64,000 nt of DNA from Oscillospiraceae bacterium (GTDB lineage Bacteria; Bacillota; Clostridia; Oscillospirales; Oscillospiraceae): contig SVMC01000001.1 in NCBI GenBank assembly GCA_015067585.1, positions 33,876 to 97,875 on the forward strand, written 5' to 3'. The notes under the pieces were generated by a model, which saw only the letters and a program-made list of their open reading frames with translations, searched no databases and was not told the origin of the DNA. Made by a program: the position numbers and the translations under genes. How positions within the stretch are numbered: the stretch's first letter is position 1; every line of letters begins with the position of its first letter. Below are positions 4,130 through 64,000 of this stretch, one piece after another.

Positions 4130-4789
4130 ATGCAGAAAAAAAGACAGATATCCGTTATTCTGATCGTTGTGATGCTTCTTGGCCTGCTGGCAGGCTGCGG
4201 TAAGGATGCGGAAAATACCCCCAAAGACAGCCCTGTCAACGAAGCGGCAGAAACTGCCGGAACAGTTGCTTCTGCGCCGGAAGCAGACAGCGAAGCAGAT
4301 ACGGATGAATCCGCTGCGGAGGAAGCTGTGCCCGATATCCTCGCGGAAACCGAAACCTATTATAACGAAGAATTCGGCTTCGGTTTCGCCGTTGAAGGCT
4401 GGTCCTTCTATGATGAGGAGACTCTGAAGGCGCAGACGGACGCCAACTATGTCATGGCAGCGGCAAACAACGCCGGCGAGACGGTAAGCGTTGCCATTCA
4501 GGACACCCCTGCGGAGTACAAAGGCCTCACTGAGGAGGAACTCTACTTCCTGCTTCTGATGACTGAGCAGCCCAAACTGCAGGAGATCGGCATGCCTGAT
4601 ACAAGCATCGAAGTCGATACCACGGAATTCCTCGGAAGTGAATGTTCCGCACTGCATTCCATTCTGGGCTCCGTCAGTGTGGAACAGAAGCGGATCTATC
4701 TGGTGCAGGACGAGCAGACCTGTGTCATTACGGTTACCTCTGCCAACGAAGAGGCTGTTGATGTCATTATGGGTCTGTTCCATCACTGA
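4130..4789 (+). CDS. Putative lipoprotein, paralog of 3442..4113 (lipobox LLAGC)
   Basis: Signal peptide plus LAG-C. Shares EGWSFYDEETL and a C-terminal EA(T)VD.IM..FH block with the upstream gene. Confidence 0.7.
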   Translation: MQKKRQISVILIVVMLLGLLAGCGKDAENTPKDSPVNEAAETAGTVASAPEADSEADTDESAAEEAVPDILAETETYYNEEFGFGFAVEGWSFYDEETLKAQTDANYVMAAANNAGETVSVAIQDTPAEYKGLTEEELYFLLLMTEQPKLQEIGMPDTSIEVDTTEFLGSECSALHSILGSVSVEQKRIYLVQDEQTCVITVTSANEEAVDVIMGLFHH

Positions 4790-25237: not shown

Positions 25238-26428
25238 ATGCACAAGAACTACCGCAGGACATTGATTGCCTGCTATATGGGCTTCATCACCCAGGCCATT
25301 ACCTCCAATTTTGTAACCCTGCTGTTCCTTACCTTTTATTCCGACTACCATATTTCTCTGGGCCGTATCGCCCTGATCCCTTCCACCTTCTTCATTACCC
25401 AGCTCATTGTGGATGCCCTGTGCGCCCGCTATGTGGACAGGATCGGCTACCGCAGAGCCATTCTGGTCTCTCAGATCGCGGCGGGTGCCGGACTTGCGGG
25501 TCTGGCCTTCCTGCCGGAGTTGTTCCCGGATCCCTTTGTGGGTATCTTGCTGTGCGTGGTCATCTATGCCATCGGCAGCGGCCTCATTGAGGTGCTGTGC
25601 AGCCCCATCGTGGAAGCCTGCCCGTTGGACAATAAAGCTTCCGTCATGAGCCTGCTCCATTCCTTCTATTGCTGGGGCTCTGTGGCGGTGATCGTGGTGT
25701 CCACGGCGTTCTTTGCCCTCTTCGGTACGGAAAACTGGAAGTGGCTGGCCTGCTTCTGGGCATTGATCCCCCTTGTAAACATTGCCAATTTCGCCGTCTG
25801 CCCCATCAATCATCTGGTGGAGGAGGGCAAAGGTATGTCCATCCGGGATCTTTTCAAAACGCCATTGTTCTGGCTGGCGGTGCTGCTGATGGTCTGCTCC
25901 GGCGCTTCCGAGCTTGCCATGGCCCAGTGGGCTTCCGCCTTTGTGGAATCCGCCCTCGGCCTTTCCAAAACCATGGGCGATCTGGCAGGCCCCTGTATGT
26001 TTGCCATCACCATGGGCATCAGCCGCGTGATCTACAGCAAGTGGGGCGAAAAGGTGGACCTGAGCGGCTATATGCTGGGTTCCGGTGTTCTGTGCTTCGC
26101 CTGCTATCTGCTGGCCTCCATGAGCGCCAACCCCGTGTGGGGTCTGGTGGGCTGCATCGCCTGCGGCTTCTCCGTGGGCATCATGTGGCCCGGCACCATC
26201 AGCATCTCCTCTGCCAAAATGCCTCTGGGCGGCACGGCGCTGTTTGCCCTGCTGGCCATGTCCGGTGACTTAGGCGGTGCCTTTGGCCCCACCCTTGTGG
26301 GCTATGCGACCCAGCTTGCGGGGGATGACCTGCGGGTGGGTCTACGCACCGGCTGCATCTTCCCCATTTTATTGATCGTGGGTCTCCTCCTCATGAAGCG
26401 GGTGTCCCGCAAAAAGAGCACCGTATAA
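25238..26428 (+). CDS. MFS transporter
   Basis: 396 aa with about 12 hydrophobic segments. It is divergent from the AraC gene. Confidence 0.85.
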   Translation: MHKNYRRTLIACYMGFITQAITSNFVTLLFLTFYSDYHISLGRIALIPSTFFITQLIVDALCARYVDRIGYRRAILVSQIAAGAGLAGLAFLPELFPDPFVGILLCVVIYAIGSGLIEVLCSPIVEACPLDNKASVMSLLHSFYCWGSVAVIVVSTAFFALFGTENWKWLACFWALIPLVNIANFAVCPINHLVEEGKGMSIRDLFKTPLFWLAVLLMVCSGASELAMAQWASAFVESALGLSKTMGDLAGPCMFAITMGISRVIYSKWGEKVDLSGYMLGSGVLCFACYLLASMSANPVWGLVGCIACGFSVGIMWPGTISISSAKMPLGGTALFALLAMSGDLGGAFGPTLVGYATQLAGDDLRVGLRTGCIFPILLIVGLLLMKRVSRKKSTV

Positions 26429-27392: not shown

Positions 27393-27420
27393 TTGACAAA
27401 TGGCCGGAAATGTGTATAAT
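27393..27420 (+). promoter_or_regulatory. Sigma-A promoter of tRNA-Gln: TTGACA, 16-nt spacer, TATAAT, with an A/T-rich UP-like region upstream
   Basis: Consensus hexamers read directly, 22 nt upstream of the tRNA 5' end. Confidence 0.75.
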
Positions 27421-27441: not shown

Positions 27442-27515
27442 AGCGGGTTTGTGTAATGGTAGCACAGCGGACTCTGACTCCGTATGTGAGGGTTCAAATC
27501 CTTCACCCGCTGCCA
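27442..27515 (+). tRNA. tRNA-Gln (anticodon CTG), CCA encoded
   Basis: Folded by hand. Acceptor agcgggt/acccgct, D stem gtgt/gcac, anticodon stem gcgga/tccgt with loop ct-CTG-ac, T arm gaggg-ttcaaat-ccttc, discriminator G, CCA. Confidence 0.9.
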
Positions 27516-27517
27516 TG

Positions 27518-27557
27518 AAAAAAGTCACTTTTGTCTACTGACAAGAGTGACTTTTTT
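27518..27557 (+). terminator. Intrinsic terminator after tRNA-Gln
   Basis: aaaaagtcact...agtgacttttt stem with an inner ttgtc/gacaa pairing and a U-tract. Confidence 0.8.
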
Positions 27558-27561
27558 CAAT

Positions 27562-27727
27562 GATATCCGTTCCTGGCGGAACGGGTGATATATCTTCGAT
27601 ATGATATCCACCTGCGGTGGATGATATATGCCTTCGGCATATGGAGGAACGGATATTATATCATATTTGCAACGCAAATATATCATACGGCAAAGCCGTA
27701 TATCATATCGCGCAAGCGATATATCAT
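27562..27727. repeat. Array of 7 unique short hairpins separated by (G)ATATCAT-type constant motifs
   Basis: Hairpins lie at 27567-84, 27590-602, 27606-22, 27626-42, 27663-81, 27685-701 and 27705-22. ATATCAT occurs at 27658, 27680, 27700 and 27721. Confidence 0.85.
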
Positions 27728-27877
27728 TGAGTAATGCAACAAATTATGTTACCTCACGATGTTCATCCCCACTACTTTCTCCCAAAAATTTTTTCCAATT
27801 TCCCTCCCTTTGTTCATGACTAATTCATAATTATCCTGTATTGTGGCATTATATTTAAAACAAAGGAGGCGTAACCT

Positions 27878-32510: not shown

Positions 32511-32658
32511 GCGGAGGTTCCGCAATGATATAGATTAAAACTCTGTGTCACCGTCATCCTAAGACTTGTAGGGCGCAAGTCACTAATAAAGAATGCCCAC
32601 TGAGTTGATCTTCCCGTAGAGCGCGGGAAGGGTAAACAAAAAAATGCTCACCGAGAAG
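32511..32658 (+). ncRNA. Putative type III antitoxin-like RNA: three units of about 50 nt (hairpin, A-rich linker, YCACYG box)
   Basis: Unit hairpins are at 32511-23 (gcgga/tccgc), 32563-81 (gacttg-tagggcg-caagtc) and 32610-30 (cttcccg-tagagcg-cgggaag). The shared box is aatgcccactgag (32592) / aatgctcaccgag (32643). No ORF is present. Confidence 0.4.
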
Positions 32659-58281: not shown

Positions 58282-58362
58282 ACTCAAGTAACTCCTGAGT
58301 GATAGTTGGAAGCCCGTGTGCGAAACACTTCGTTACAGCTATCAATCTTCAATTCTATGCAT

Positions 58363-62718: not shown

Positions 62719-63417
62719 ATGAAGCAAGCACTGCTTGAGGGTTTGAACCCCCTTGGCATCTCCCTCACGGAAGCACAGACCGACAATTTCTGCCGCTACG
62801 GCACTCTCTTAGTGGAGAAAAACGCGGTGATGAACCTCACCGCCATCACAGAGCCGAAGGATGTGGCCCTGCTCCACTTTGCCGACTGCCTTGCCCTGAC
62901 AAAGATCCGGGATTTTAAGGGAAAACGGGTCATCGATGTGGGCTGCGGCGCAGGCTTTCCCGGCGTTCCCCTGAAAATTGGGGAGCCTTCCATGGAGCTG
63001 ACCCTGCTGGATGCCACCGCCAAGCGGATGAACTGGCTGGAGCAGGAGCTGCTGCCGGAGCTGGGCTTGTCTGCAAAGTGTCTGACGGGCCGTGCGGAGG
63101 AGCTGATCGAAGGCCGCCGGGAGGGGTATGACATTGCCGTTTCCCGTGCCGTGGCAAGGCTCAATATGCTCTGCGAGCTGTGCCTGCCCTTCGTCAAGGT
63201 GGGGGGCTTCTTCCTCGCCATGAAGGGCGCCGCCGCCTCGGATGAGGCCGAGGAAGCCAAGGCTGCCATCCGTCTTTTAGGCGGCAAGCTGCGGGAAATC
63301 GCGGAATACCCCATTGGGGATGCGATGCACAGGGTGGTAGTGATCGAAAAGGTCCGTCCCACCCCGCCCAAATATCCCCGCCGCTTTGCCAAGATCAAGC
63401 AGCAGCCTCTTGTCTGA
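62719..63417 (+). CDS. rsmG: 16S rRNA (guanine527-N7)-methyltransferase
   Basis: N.TAI......(L/W).H..D(S/C)L and DVG.GAGFPG.PLKI. AAGGAG lies 5 nt before the ATG at 62719. Confidence 0.9.
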   Translation: MKQALLEGLNPLGISLTEAQTDNFCRYGTLLVEKNAVMNLTAITEPKDVALLHFADCLALTKIRDFKGKRVIDVGCGAGFPGVPLKIGEPSMELTLLDATAKRMNWLEQELLPELGLSAKCLTGRAEELIEGRREGYDIAVSRAVARLNMLCELCLPFVKVGGFFLAMKGAAASDEAEEAKAAIRLLGGKLREIAEYPIGDAMHRVVVIEKVRPTPPKYPRRFAKIKQQPLV

Positions 63418-63418
63418 C

Positions 63419-63543
63419 AGGGCAAGCTGCGCTTGCCCTCTCGATTTCGCTCCCTGACAGGAGCGAAATCATATCGAATTGCACAGCAATATATCGAATT
63501 CGCGAAGCGAATATATCGAGCTTCCCAAAGGGAAGCATATCGA
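63419..63543. repeat. Second hairpin array: 5 unique hairpins alternating with the constant ATATCGA motif
   Basis: Hairpins lie at 63419-39, 63443-70, 63478-90, 63498-512 and 63520-36. ATATCGA occurs at 63471, 63491, 63513 and 63537. Confidence 0.85.
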
Positions 63544-63575
63544 CAATAGCTGAAACGGCTTTGTTTTTATCGAAA

Positions 63576-63630
63576 CTACCGGCGAATTCGCCGCCTTTAT
63601 GCGGACAGCCGAGGACGGCTGTCCCTACGG
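63576..63630 (-). repeat. Composite GC-rich repeat, inverted copy of 10766..10816
   Basis: The reverse complement ccgtagggacagccgtcctcggctgtccg...ggcgaattcgccggtag matches the 10766 copy over both end blocks. Confidence 0.85.
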
Positions 63631-63666
63631 TGGAAGTTGGAGGTCTTTGCAGGACCGATATTTTAT

Positions 63667-63735
63667 CGTAGGGACAGGCCTCCGGACTGTCCGGCAGGAA
63701 AAGTTCCTTTTTCATTAAAACTACCGGCGAATTCG
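63667..63735 (+). repeat. Third, rearranged copy of the composite repeat (cgtagggacaggcctccggactgtccgg ... ctaccggcgaattcg)
   Basis: It shares the GTAGGGACAG..CTGTCCGG hairpin block and the ACCGGCGAATTCG block. The latter also occurs at 26499-26512. Confidence 0.75.
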
Positions 63736-63797: not shown

Positions 63798-64000
63798 ATG
63801 AAGATTTCTCTTGCCTGTGACCATGGCGCGCTGACCCTGAAGCAGAAGGTGCGTCAGCATCTGGAAGCCCAGGGCCATACCGTGGTGGACTTCGGCACCA
63901 ACACCCCCGACAGCTGCGACTATGCCGACTTCGGCATCCCCGCTGCAAAGGCCGTGGCCTCCGGCGAATGCGACAGAGGCATCGTGCTCTGCACCACCGG
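63798..64000 (+). CDS. rpiB: Ribose-5-phosphate isomerase B, N-terminal part (the 3' end lies outside the window)
   Basis: MKISLACDHGALTLKQKV...L...GH.V.DFG and C..G.G. GGAGG RBS. Confidence 0.9.
   Translation, partial: MKISLACDHGALTLKQKVRQHLEAQGHTVVDFGTNTPDSCDYADFGIPAAKAVASGECDRGIVLCTT

Follow-up and report, generated by a model that had tools for sequence, protein, structure and literature searches.

The element analyzed here belongs to a described family, Gut-1 (RF01706), which Weinberg et al. (2010; PMC2864571) presented as a probable non-coding RNA that is not cis-regulatory, occurs in the human gut only and has no assigned function, and which they rated 'Y' for RNA because of its covariation. 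A search of the literature on Gut-1/RF01706 found no work later than that paper. A second point of reference is the target site of diversity-generating retroelements (DGRs), whose recognition needs a DNA hairpin or cruciform with a stem of free sequence and a strand-specific GRNA loop (Guo et al., 2011; PMC3240598). We have analyzed a stretch of 64,000 nucleotides from an Oscillospiraceae bacterium (assembly GCA_015067585.1, contig SVMC01000001.1, positions 33,876 to 97,875 of the forward strand; hereafter the window), in which seven small hairpins alternate with a constant heptamer directly behind a tRNA-Gln(CTG) gene. In this array we recognize a full copy of a composite repeat, with the Gut-1 motif of Rfam as its proximal arm, and some related copies elsewhere precede genes of the PF05635 (Avd-like) family, which suggests a candidate protein partner for a motif that has had none.

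Both halves of the array exceed the curated gathering score of 50 bits of the Gut-1 covariance model, the first on the plus strand (27558-27632, 64.1 bits) and the second on the minus strand (27653-27729, 52.6 bits). Hence the array belongs to a catalogued family and the motif itself was already known, although an earlier note on this DNA, made from the letters alone, had recognized no described repeat class in it. The model consists of three hairpins flanked by four (G)UGAAAU linkers, and the window has the corresponding three consecutive hairpins flanked and separated by a UGAUAU linker, a variant that the original alignment already includes together with flanks containing an inverted second arm, an upstream terminator and one tRNA (PMC2864571). 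The stems covary as Gut-1 requires, both over 52 homologues and in comparison with a strain variant of the window locus (L005), in which ATATC/GATAT of the second hairpin has become ATACC/GGTAT. The likeness to an inverted CRISPR array that the earlier note had drawn proves superficial. In CRISPR arrays the constant repeats are 23-47 nt long, the spacers are unique and unrelated and there are cas genes or a leader, whereas here the constant unit is 7 nt and the variable units are homologous hairpins, conserved at equivalent positions between loci and altered by compensatory change, and not free inserts; the one match to a CRISPR direct repeat model in the window (RF01348; 15.6 bits, E = 7.7) is noise.

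Each of the seven hairpins could be located (27567-27722), with no mismatch in any stem, the tRNA-Gln(CTG) gene and its terminator lie directly ahead of them, and ATATCAT recurs on the plus strand at 27658, 27680, 27700 and 27721 with spacings of 22, 20 and 21 nt, all as the earlier note had described. The motif is found 23 times in the window against 6.7 expected, and the tandem form ATATCRW-N11-19-ATATCRW eight times against 0.01 expected and in none of 100 shuffles; the tandem hits are confined to the 27.6-kb array and to a second array at 63.4 kb, also anticipated by the note, in which the heptamer is ATATCGA. A blind scan of the 64 kb for clusters of perfect mini-hairpins returned the same two loci. 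That the pattern is a product of chance clustering or of assembly can be regarded as already refuted, since shuffle controls exclude chance, since six further metagenome contigs of independent origin (L001-L004, L006, and L007) carry the array base for base, and since more than 100 homologous elements exist elsewhere; with these and the 63.4-kb relative, the array is not unique to its locus either. One feature needed correction. ATATCAT is constant on the plus strand only in the second half, whereas the first half carries it on the opposite strand (ATGATAT at 27560, 27601, and 27621), and the array therefore consists of two inverted arms and is no single tandem series.

The same two-armed plan recurs throughout a comparison set of about 150 related loci. 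A scan of GTDB genomes for three GTGAWAT heptamers gave at least 120 loci, of which 72 of 120 passed a hairpin filter, and the carriers among the matches listed are nearly all metagenome-assembled genomes (MAGs) of human and ruminant gut Clostridia assigned to the Oscillospiraceae, Acutalibacteraceae, Christensenellaceae, and 'Eubacteriales'. Forty-four full elements from GTDB share the order long hairpin (LH), left end, proximal (P) arm, centre, distal (D) arm, and right end. The LH, which stands ahead of every family member, is usually a bidirectional terminator, the left end has the form CA(A/G)(C/T)GAAAT and the right end is the last heptamer. The P arm is made of short hairpins with RTGAWAT between them and the D arm of longer hairpins with ATWTCAY between them, always forward heptamers and then reverse, and the number of internal P hairpins ranges from 0 to about 5. 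The stems differ through compensatory change, whereas a single element keeps its heptamers constant, and those of the P and D arms are concordant in 37 of 39 cases; the classes GTGATGT/ACATCAC, GTGAAGT/ACTTCAC, and TCGATAT/ATATCGA are likewise matched between arms, and several classes may be found together in one genome or contig.

The P arm is closed by a long-range stem, in which the 5' end of the P arm (the first linker plus the 5' arm of the first hairpin, hp1) is complementary to the centre over 11-12 bp. Across 52 P arms its 12 pairs are 94.4% paired, with double changes at 9 of the 12 and no equivalent in 500 shuffles, and the median complementarity is 10.5 nt for cognate combinations versus 6 for non-cognate ones. 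On the same arms hp1 is 95.4% paired, with compensatory change in 7/7 pairs. The 5' strand of the closing stem in the window accordingly has two alternative partners, the adjacent 27578-27584 within hp1 or 27645-27656, and what looked like a spacer, GGAGGAACGGATATT, is a repeat of the 3' arm of hp1 that pairs with 27563-27574. The full window element extends from 27557 to 27730 (~174 bp) after the terminator hairpin 27516-27559, and its outer ends, TCAATGATAT and ATATCATTGA, form a 10-bp inverted repeat (Table 1). With an A-run on its 5' side and a T-run on its 3' side, the LH is a bidirectional intrinsic terminator. The ATAT of the heptamer lies partly within hairpin stems, and no convincing promoter abuts the last heptamer. 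The 63-aa open reading frame (ORF) at 27628-27819 is most likely spurious, because it crosses the D arm, which is conserved as hairpins rather than as codons.

Table 1. Features of the two window elements and heptamer classes of the family (window positions)
Feature	Position	Strand	Description
tRNA-Gln promoter	27393-27420	+	TTGACA, 16 nt, TATAAT; 12/12 consensus match; context, outside the element
tRNA-Gln(CTG)	27442-27515	+	element directly behind, the preferred position of Gut-1 elements
Long hairpin (LH)	27516-27559	.	20-nt stem, 5' A-run and 3' T-run
Left terminus	27557-27566	+	TCAATGATAT; contains first P heptamer ATGATAT, 27560-27566
P arm, Gut-1 model match	27558-27632	+	hp1-hp3; heptamers RTGATAT at 27560, 27585, 27601, 27621
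X, 5' strand of long-range closing stem	27563-27574	+	ATATCCGTTCCT
hp1	27567-27584		CCGTTCC/GGAACGG, perfect stem; P arm
hp2	27590-27602		ATATC/GATAT, perfect stem; P arm
hp3	27606-27622		ATCCACC/GGTGGAT, perfect stem; P arm
hp4	27626-27642		ATATGCC/GGCATAT, perfect stem; completes P arm
Centre / X'b, 3' strand of closing stem	27645-27656	+	AGGAACGGATAT; strand-polarity switch point
D arm, Gut-1 model match	27653-27729	-	hp5-hp7; plus-strand ATATCAT at 27658, 27680, 27700, 27721
hp5	27663-27681		ATATTTGC/GCAAATAT, perfect stem, loop AAC; D arm
Promoter-like site (predicted)	27677-27706	-	ATGATA, 18 nt, TATATT, TG ahead; aims at P arm and LH terminator
hp6	27685-27701		ATACGGC/GCCGTAT, perfect stem, loop AAA; D arm
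hp7	27705-27722		ATATCGC/GCGATAT, perfect stem, loop GCAA; D arm
Right terminus	27721-27730	+	ATATCATTGA; last heptamer plus TGA
Second family member, ATATCGA class	63419-63573	+	behind preceding gene, stop 63415-63417
Second element, LH	63419-63439		
Second element, minimal P arm	63443-63453 with 63460-63470		one hairpin, GATTTCGCTCC with GGAGCGAAATC
Second element, D arm	ATATCGA at 63471, 63491, 63513, 63537; TTATCGA ending 63573		loops ACA, GAA, AAA
Heptamer class GTGAAAT/ATTTCAC			
Heptamer class GTGATAT/ATATCAC			
Heptamer class ATGATAT/ATATCAT			window 27.6-kb element
Heptamer class ATGAAAT/ATTTCAT			
Heptamer class TCGATAT/ATATCGA			63.4 kb, L125, L075
Heptamer class GTGATGT/ACATCAC			
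Heptamer class GTGAAGT/ACTTCAC			
Heptamer class ATGAAGT/ACTTCAT			

Several other interpretations of the heptamers were tried and set aside. A ladder in which P heptamers pair with D heptamers appears in minimum free energy (MFE) folds with both RNA and DNA parameters, but within-element variants do not discriminate it and the covarying closing stem joins the first P linker to the first D linker instead, so that it is kept as a possibility only. Extended -10 promoter elements would fit the GTGATAT class but fail for GTGAAAT, and likenesses to parS, to the Noc-binding site and to the DnaA and Fur boxes fail on other heptamer classes.

The strand that folds could be deduced from the hairpins of the family. 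Read in the direction from tRNA through P to D, the loops of the P arm are mostly c-TTC-g and c-TGC-g and those of the D arm c-GAA-g, c-GTAA-g, c-AAA-g, c-GCA-g, c-GTTA-g, and c-GAAA-g; the strand with the ATTTCAC linkers therefore has cGNAg and cGNNAg loops in both arms. Tandem G.A/A.G mismatches, about 10 in number, are confined to the top strand of the D arm, which is of the ATTTCAC type. In a set of 158 distinct hairpins that were oriented independently by the downstream gene, top-strand mismatches amount to 12 A.C and 1 G.T in the P arm and to 16 G.T and 2 A.C in the D arm, so that the ATTTCAC strand carries 28 G.T wobbles versus 3 A.C (p = 4.6e-6). As loops, G.A pairs and wobbles all fall on the ATTTCAC-type strand, the folded strand is the ATWTCAY strand, the bottom one in P and the top one in D, with a switch of polarity at the centre. 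A single RNA in the orientation of Rfam is contradicted by this switch. MFE folds are alike for both strands and both parameter sets. Loops of the cGNAg and cGNNAg kinds are reportedly exceptionally stable in DNA mini-hairpins, and selected RNA hairpins prefer GNRA and UNCG tetraloops. In our tally triloops predominate and about one-third of the tetraloops are GNYA, which is why the evidence tilts, by a modest margin, toward DNA that is extruded or transiently single-stranded.

The link to a protein comes from the right-hand end of the element. PF05635 (TIGR02436) comprises the '23S rRNA intervening sequence proteins', which are four-helix bundles of the Avd family, and several D arms are followed within ~10-55 nt by a gene of this family encoding ~115 aa. 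Among the matches listed, 9 of the 11 PF05635 genes in genome loci are directly behind a D arm. In a reverse test, metagenome contigs were searched with the protein alignment and the best 80 loci kept, 59 of them with at least 260 nt upstream; a complete element, judged by eye, ends ~12-110 nt ahead of the start codon in ~57 of these 59 relatives, of which a strict automatic filter flags only 29. In one PF05635 subfamily almost all genes have an element directly ahead of them. The protein subfamily also follows the heptamer class, 'DSILR.KSK' proteins being found with ATATCAC (3/3), and the N-terminus tracks the final heptamer base: ESKLR pairs with ATTTCAC and ENKL(A/V)D with ATTTCAT (10/10), a match that persists where the gene bodies are 89% identical, with the break near codon 10. 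Avd is a pentamer, and 2RLD, the one relative with a solved structure, is entered with five chains. The four-helix-bundle protein had no match in scans against PADLOC and PHROGs, and PF05635 is otherwise uncharacterized (PMC10053308; PMC3936711).

Gene-carrying loci show some further variety. At L031, L026, L279, L065, and others a canonical promoter abuts the last heptamer and drives the downstream gene, with ATTTCAC|TTGAAA-17-TATAAT in L031 and TTGACA-17-TATAAT in L065 as examples. A small conserved ORF, which we take to be MazG-like, follows the four-helix-bundle gene in L248 (1232-2600), L249, and L250. A second LH-P copy comes next in L248 and L250, the contig of L250 ending within it and that of L248 continuing with a decayed D arm, a remnant of a four-helix-bundle N-terminus and then tRNA-Ala. 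The arrangement in L305 (1062-1988) is atypical, as GTGAAAT-type and ATTTCAC-type arrays with mirror-image hairpins lie ~700 bp apart, with the four-helix-bundle gene and a tRNA-Trp on the minus strand between them. In an Oscillospiraceae MAG (L036, 932-1048), a hairpin-free tandem repeat GTGAAAT GAGCAAT is found beside a more distant PF05635 gene.

The elements prefer the 3' flanks of tRNA genes, and about two-thirds of them stand directly behind one. In the genome loci 27 of 43 tRNA genes have an element within ~30-100 nt on the 3' side, always in the order tRNA, LH, P, and at least 12 tRNA identities carry one; of the gene-linked modules, 25 of 37 stand behind a tRNA gene or operon, representing 11 identities. 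The remaining elements are behind the terminators of protein genes, and some tRNAs have no element. Around the elements lie housekeeping genes with no relation to one another (the 120 flanking ORFs contain 141 Pfam families), and no neighboring protein family was enriched in a scan that took the longest ORF and thereby skipped the small PF05635 gene, whose link was found by eye and then tested. Copies in the same genome are near-identical with sharp ends: at L124 they lie 15-20 nt behind two unrelated terminators, and a single module recurs after two tRNA genes, tRNA-Pro and tRNA-Arg, and after a protein gene, the homology starting exactly at the A-run after CCA. Tandem and decayed copies occur, and a second element follows downstream of the first in 5 of 44 loci. 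No target-site duplication was seen at the junctions inspected, where no systematic search was made and no empty site was at hand for comparison. A full element had no blastn match in collections of plasmids and phages. Viral contigs scanned for the pattern gave at least 120 stretches, of which only 4 distinct loci pass the hairpin filter, two of them beside tRNA 3' ends, in contrast to the 72 of 120 from genome contigs. The element is therefore not phage- or plasmid-borne, and it is probably a mobile, in any case dispersed, chromosomal repeat of gut Clostridia.

The strain variant L005 (1-480) has a second complete element of the GTGAAAT class (77.6 bits) in tandem upstream, a degenerate tRNA-like 3' remnant (GGGTTCA...CCCA) between the two elements, and in hp1 of its window-type copy a compensatory change from T.G to C-G. 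The near-identical copies at 4297-4468 and 5012-5183 of L102 differ in a terminator loop that is exactly inverted (TTAC vs GTAA), a flip-flop-like change that is compatible with inversion of the loop within the palindrome.

The best explanation of these arrays, to which we would give an even chance, is that they are strand-specific hairpin arrays displaying heptamers to a cognate four-helix-bundle protein. The hairpins would act as structural spacers formed on single-stranded or extruded DNA, or less likely on RNA, such that about five single-stranded or junction-flanked heptamers per arm could be presented to a cognate, probably pentameric, four-helix-bundle protein, and the two arms, read on opposite strands, might be bound in two-fold symmetry. 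The complex could serve mobility, or it could regulate transcription or replication locally. Solo copies would in this view be related to the gene-carrying module but non-autonomous, and they might be binding or homing sites or else relics. A bolder formulation, tentative and rather doubtful as a whole, would hold that Gut-1 elements are not small RNA (sRNA) genes but the cognate recognition arrays, in DNA or RNA, of a stand-alone Avd-like PF05635 protein whose residues 4-8 read the last base of the heptamer, and that array and gene make up an unrecognized module homing to tRNA 3' flanks. The earlier note's suggestion of a protein that recognizes the motif beside a hairpin is thus favored through the PF05635 linkage and the covariation of N-terminus and heptamer, with the link itself inferred rather than demonstrated.

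A number of observations weigh against the proposal of a heptamer-reading protein. It connects protein and array through position and covariation, and as the N-terminus is encoded only 30-100 nt from the last heptamer, this covariation could result from tight linkage or modular recombination rather than from recognition. We know of no sequence-specific nucleic-acid binding by PF05635 proteins. Most elements have no PF05635 gene nearby, both window copies included; none was found in the 64-kb window, and the elements at 27.6 and 63.4 kb are therefore solo copies. For a mobile module one would also look for a catalytic mobility gene, and there was none, with no transposase or integrase family enriched among the 120 flanking ORFs. 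As to the strand, G.U-type wobbles and GNRA-like loops suit RNA equally, and a first wobble count with heuristic orientation, since superseded by the gene-oriented set, had shown a weak asymmetry of 12 vs 8.

RNA-based explanations have to be considered in this light. As annotated in Rfam, the locus would encode a free-standing Gut-1 sRNA on the plus strand (27558-27632) facing a convergent second copy on the minus strand (27653-27729), and the match of the covariance model to both arms, the 'Y' for RNA given by Weinberg et al. for covariation, and the abundant compensatory change in the stems all agree with this; yet the model spans only one of two arms that are conserved as a unit, a strong terminator stands immediately ahead with no promoter in between, and the polarity of wobbles and loops favors the other strand of the P arm, which makes this reading very improbable. 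A version with corrected strands, in which a minus-strand RNA starting in or near the D arm or centre would contain the P hairpins with AUAUCAU linkers and GAA or GCA loops and end at the bidirectional terminator, and a plus-strand RNA would contain the D arm, which at some loci would be the mRNA leader of the four-helix-bundle gene, is unlikely without being far-fetched. The heptamers between the hairpins would then bind the protein or titrate it in the manner of a sponge. The polarity data agree with such transcripts, the A-run and T-run of the LH enable it to terminate from the minus strand, some loops are of the GNRA type, and a separate promoter would find no room in L115, and apparently none in L048, where only ~15-30 nt separate the end of the D arm from the start codon. 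The window itself has the predicted minus-strand promoter-like site with an extended -10 at 27706-27677, which is relevant to the RNA reading only and is unconserved in the GTGAAAT class; no promoter-like sequence is conserved across heptamer classes, and the GTGAAAT linker gives no TANNNT -10. At many gene-linked loci, moreover, a canonical promoter follows the D arm and places it outside the mRNA, and the dominance of cGNAg triloops, with about one-third of the tetraloops GNYA, is reportedly typical of stable DNA mini-hairpins.

A selfish miniature mobile element of the MITE (miniature inverted-repeat transposable element) or REP (repetitive extragenic palindrome) kind, with the arms as terminal arrays bound by some transposase or recombinase directed at terminator hairpins or at the 3' flanks of tRNAs and with the four-helix-bundle gene as passenger cargo, is improbable on its own, though it is partly compatible with the display of heptamers to a cognate protein. 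Inverted termini, sharp-ended copies behind unrelated terminators, a fixed orientation relative to tRNA genes, tandem and decayed copies, and the variable number of hairpins in the P arm would all be explained; a coupling to PF05635 as tight and class-specific as this one would not be expected of random cargo, and neither an enriched transposase or integrase family beside the elements (120 flanking ORFs) nor a target-site duplication at the junctions inspected, unsystematically, was seen. The footprints of repair or transposition that the earlier note had entertained survive to the extent that the element is dispersed, sharp-ended and probably mobile, but a conserved structured unit is no scar. 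Its other suggestion, stacked terminators or an insulator, is scarcely credible, also when read as a shield of downstream genes from read-through of the highly expressed tRNA. It would account for the position directly behind tRNA terminators, and two mini-hairpins come out as weakly terminator-like in a consensus scan; judged by eye, however, the long hairpin at 27516-27559 alone resembles a terminator, since the mini-hairpins have stems of 5-8 bp and no U-tracts, the tails of the two that were flagged (ATATATCTTC and ATATATTTGC) being AT-mixed with no pure U-tracts. Many tRNAs in the same genomes have a terminator only, and the constant heptamers, the concordance of the arms, the polarity switch, and the PF05635 link would be left unexplained.

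The second element of the window lies behind a gene that we take, from its translation, to be RsmG-like. This element was compared with L125 and L075, and it scores below threshold against the Gut-1 model (22.1 bits, E = 0.063). Just downstream, copies of an 18-nt direct repeat, AAACTACCGGCGAATTCG, at ~63573-63590 and ~63718-63735 bracket a hairpin-rich stretch of ~130 nt (GGACAGCCGAGGACGGCTGTCC ... GGGACAGGCCTCCGGACTGTCC), and the region 63573-63735 may be another small repeat element; it lies upstream of a gene starting at 63799 that is presumably ribose-5-phosphate isomerase B, judging from its N-terminus. Other Rfam families above threshold in the window are ssnA RNA (58301-58348, minus strand, 61.2 bits) and 6A RNA (32606-32656, plus strand, 58.1 bits). 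A sub-threshold Twister-sister match (26110-26191, minus strand; 27.5 bits against a cut-off of 34, E = 0.087), which also occurs in L001, sits inside the ORF of an MFS transporter (25238-26428) and is probably due to chance.

In the literature searched, Gut-1 has had no function, host or partner since 2010. The present analysis adds hosts, namely MAGs of gut Clostridia (such as Oscillospiraceae, Acutalibacteraceae, and Christensenellaceae) from humans and ruminants, an anatomy of two arms with opposite strand polarity and a closing stem, and a candidate partner in the PF05635/Avd-like protein, the N-terminus of which follows the heptamer; the two-armed anatomy and the PF05635 link appear to be unreported in that literature. 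PF05635 proteins, which are found in cas loci and DGRs as well as in 23S rRNA intervening sequences, are long-standing unknowns. If they had a defined nucleic-acid ligand, their function could be tested directly, and an orphan motif and an orphan family could be tested jointly. If the proposal is true, the module at tRNA flanks would parallel the members of the family in 23S rRNA intervening sequences and might hint at what recognizes the hairpin at DGR target sites.

Set against the systems already described, the element differs first of all from Gut-1 as published, a one-armed sRNA restricted to the human gut, in its two arms, closing stem, and polarity switch, in its additional occurrence in ruminant gut MAGs (goat, sheep, deer, water buffalo, and cattle), in its ties to tRNA 3' flanks and PF05635 genes, which go beyond the published motif, and in the strand evidence that contradicts the annotated orientation of the P arm. 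REP elements, with their clusters (BIMEs) and the REPIN-RAYT systems, are similar in being extragenic, multi-copy hairpin repeats that follow genes or terminators and cluster in inverted orientation, and in that distinct sequence classes co-exist in a genome, each presumably with a protein partner of its own. The stems of REP elements are conserved within a class and accompanied by a GTAG-type tetranucleotide, whereas here stems differ within and between arrays and only the 7-mer is constant; the partner there is a Y1/HUH transposase and the candidate here a four-helix bundle, no RAYT or transposase family being found among the 120 flanking ORFs. The attC sites of integrons also fold strand-specifically from single strands, have variable stems and inverted short 7-mers, and lie at the boundaries of small modules, but their 7-mers (RYYYAAC/GTTRRRY) pair within one hairpin with IntI nearby, whereas RTGAWAT/ATWTCAY lie between hairpins. 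No integrase family stands out among the flanking ORFs, and a cassette model with elements on both sides of a gene was rejected, a second downstream element being found in only 5/44 loci. Of the features of MITEs, inverted termini (TCAATGATAT/ATATCATTGA) and dispersed near-identical copies are seen, but no target-site duplication at the junctions inspected, and the gene-carrying form encodes PF05635 only, with no transposase.

Arrays of short repeats upstream of the gene for a small binding protein are also known from the WATCACW heptads of the omega protein (pSM19035) and from parC of plasmid R1. As in these systems, direct and inverted short repeats stand immediately upstream of the gene of the presumed binder, and ATATCAC resembles WATCACW; the sites there are contiguous or helically phased, double-stranded, free of hairpin spacers, and bound by ribbon-helix-helix proteins. 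As it does not extend to the ATTTCAC, ATATCGA, and ACTTCAC classes, the resemblance is probably due to coincidence. To our knowledge, DGRs are the only system in which an Avd-family protein has a known role. Their target sites have a single GC-rich hairpin of 7-10 bp, whereas the present elements are arrays of 6-9 mini-hairpins with constant heptamer linkers, in which an Avd-like gene and GNNA/GNA hairpins occur with no reverse transcriptase domain among the listed families of flanking genes. Nor was a template or variable repeat noted near the elements, although no search aimed at such repeats was made. What the two have in common is an Avd-family four-helix bundle together with a DNA hairpin of required structure and free stem sequence, whose strand-specific loop is of the form G-purine-N-A (PMC3240598).

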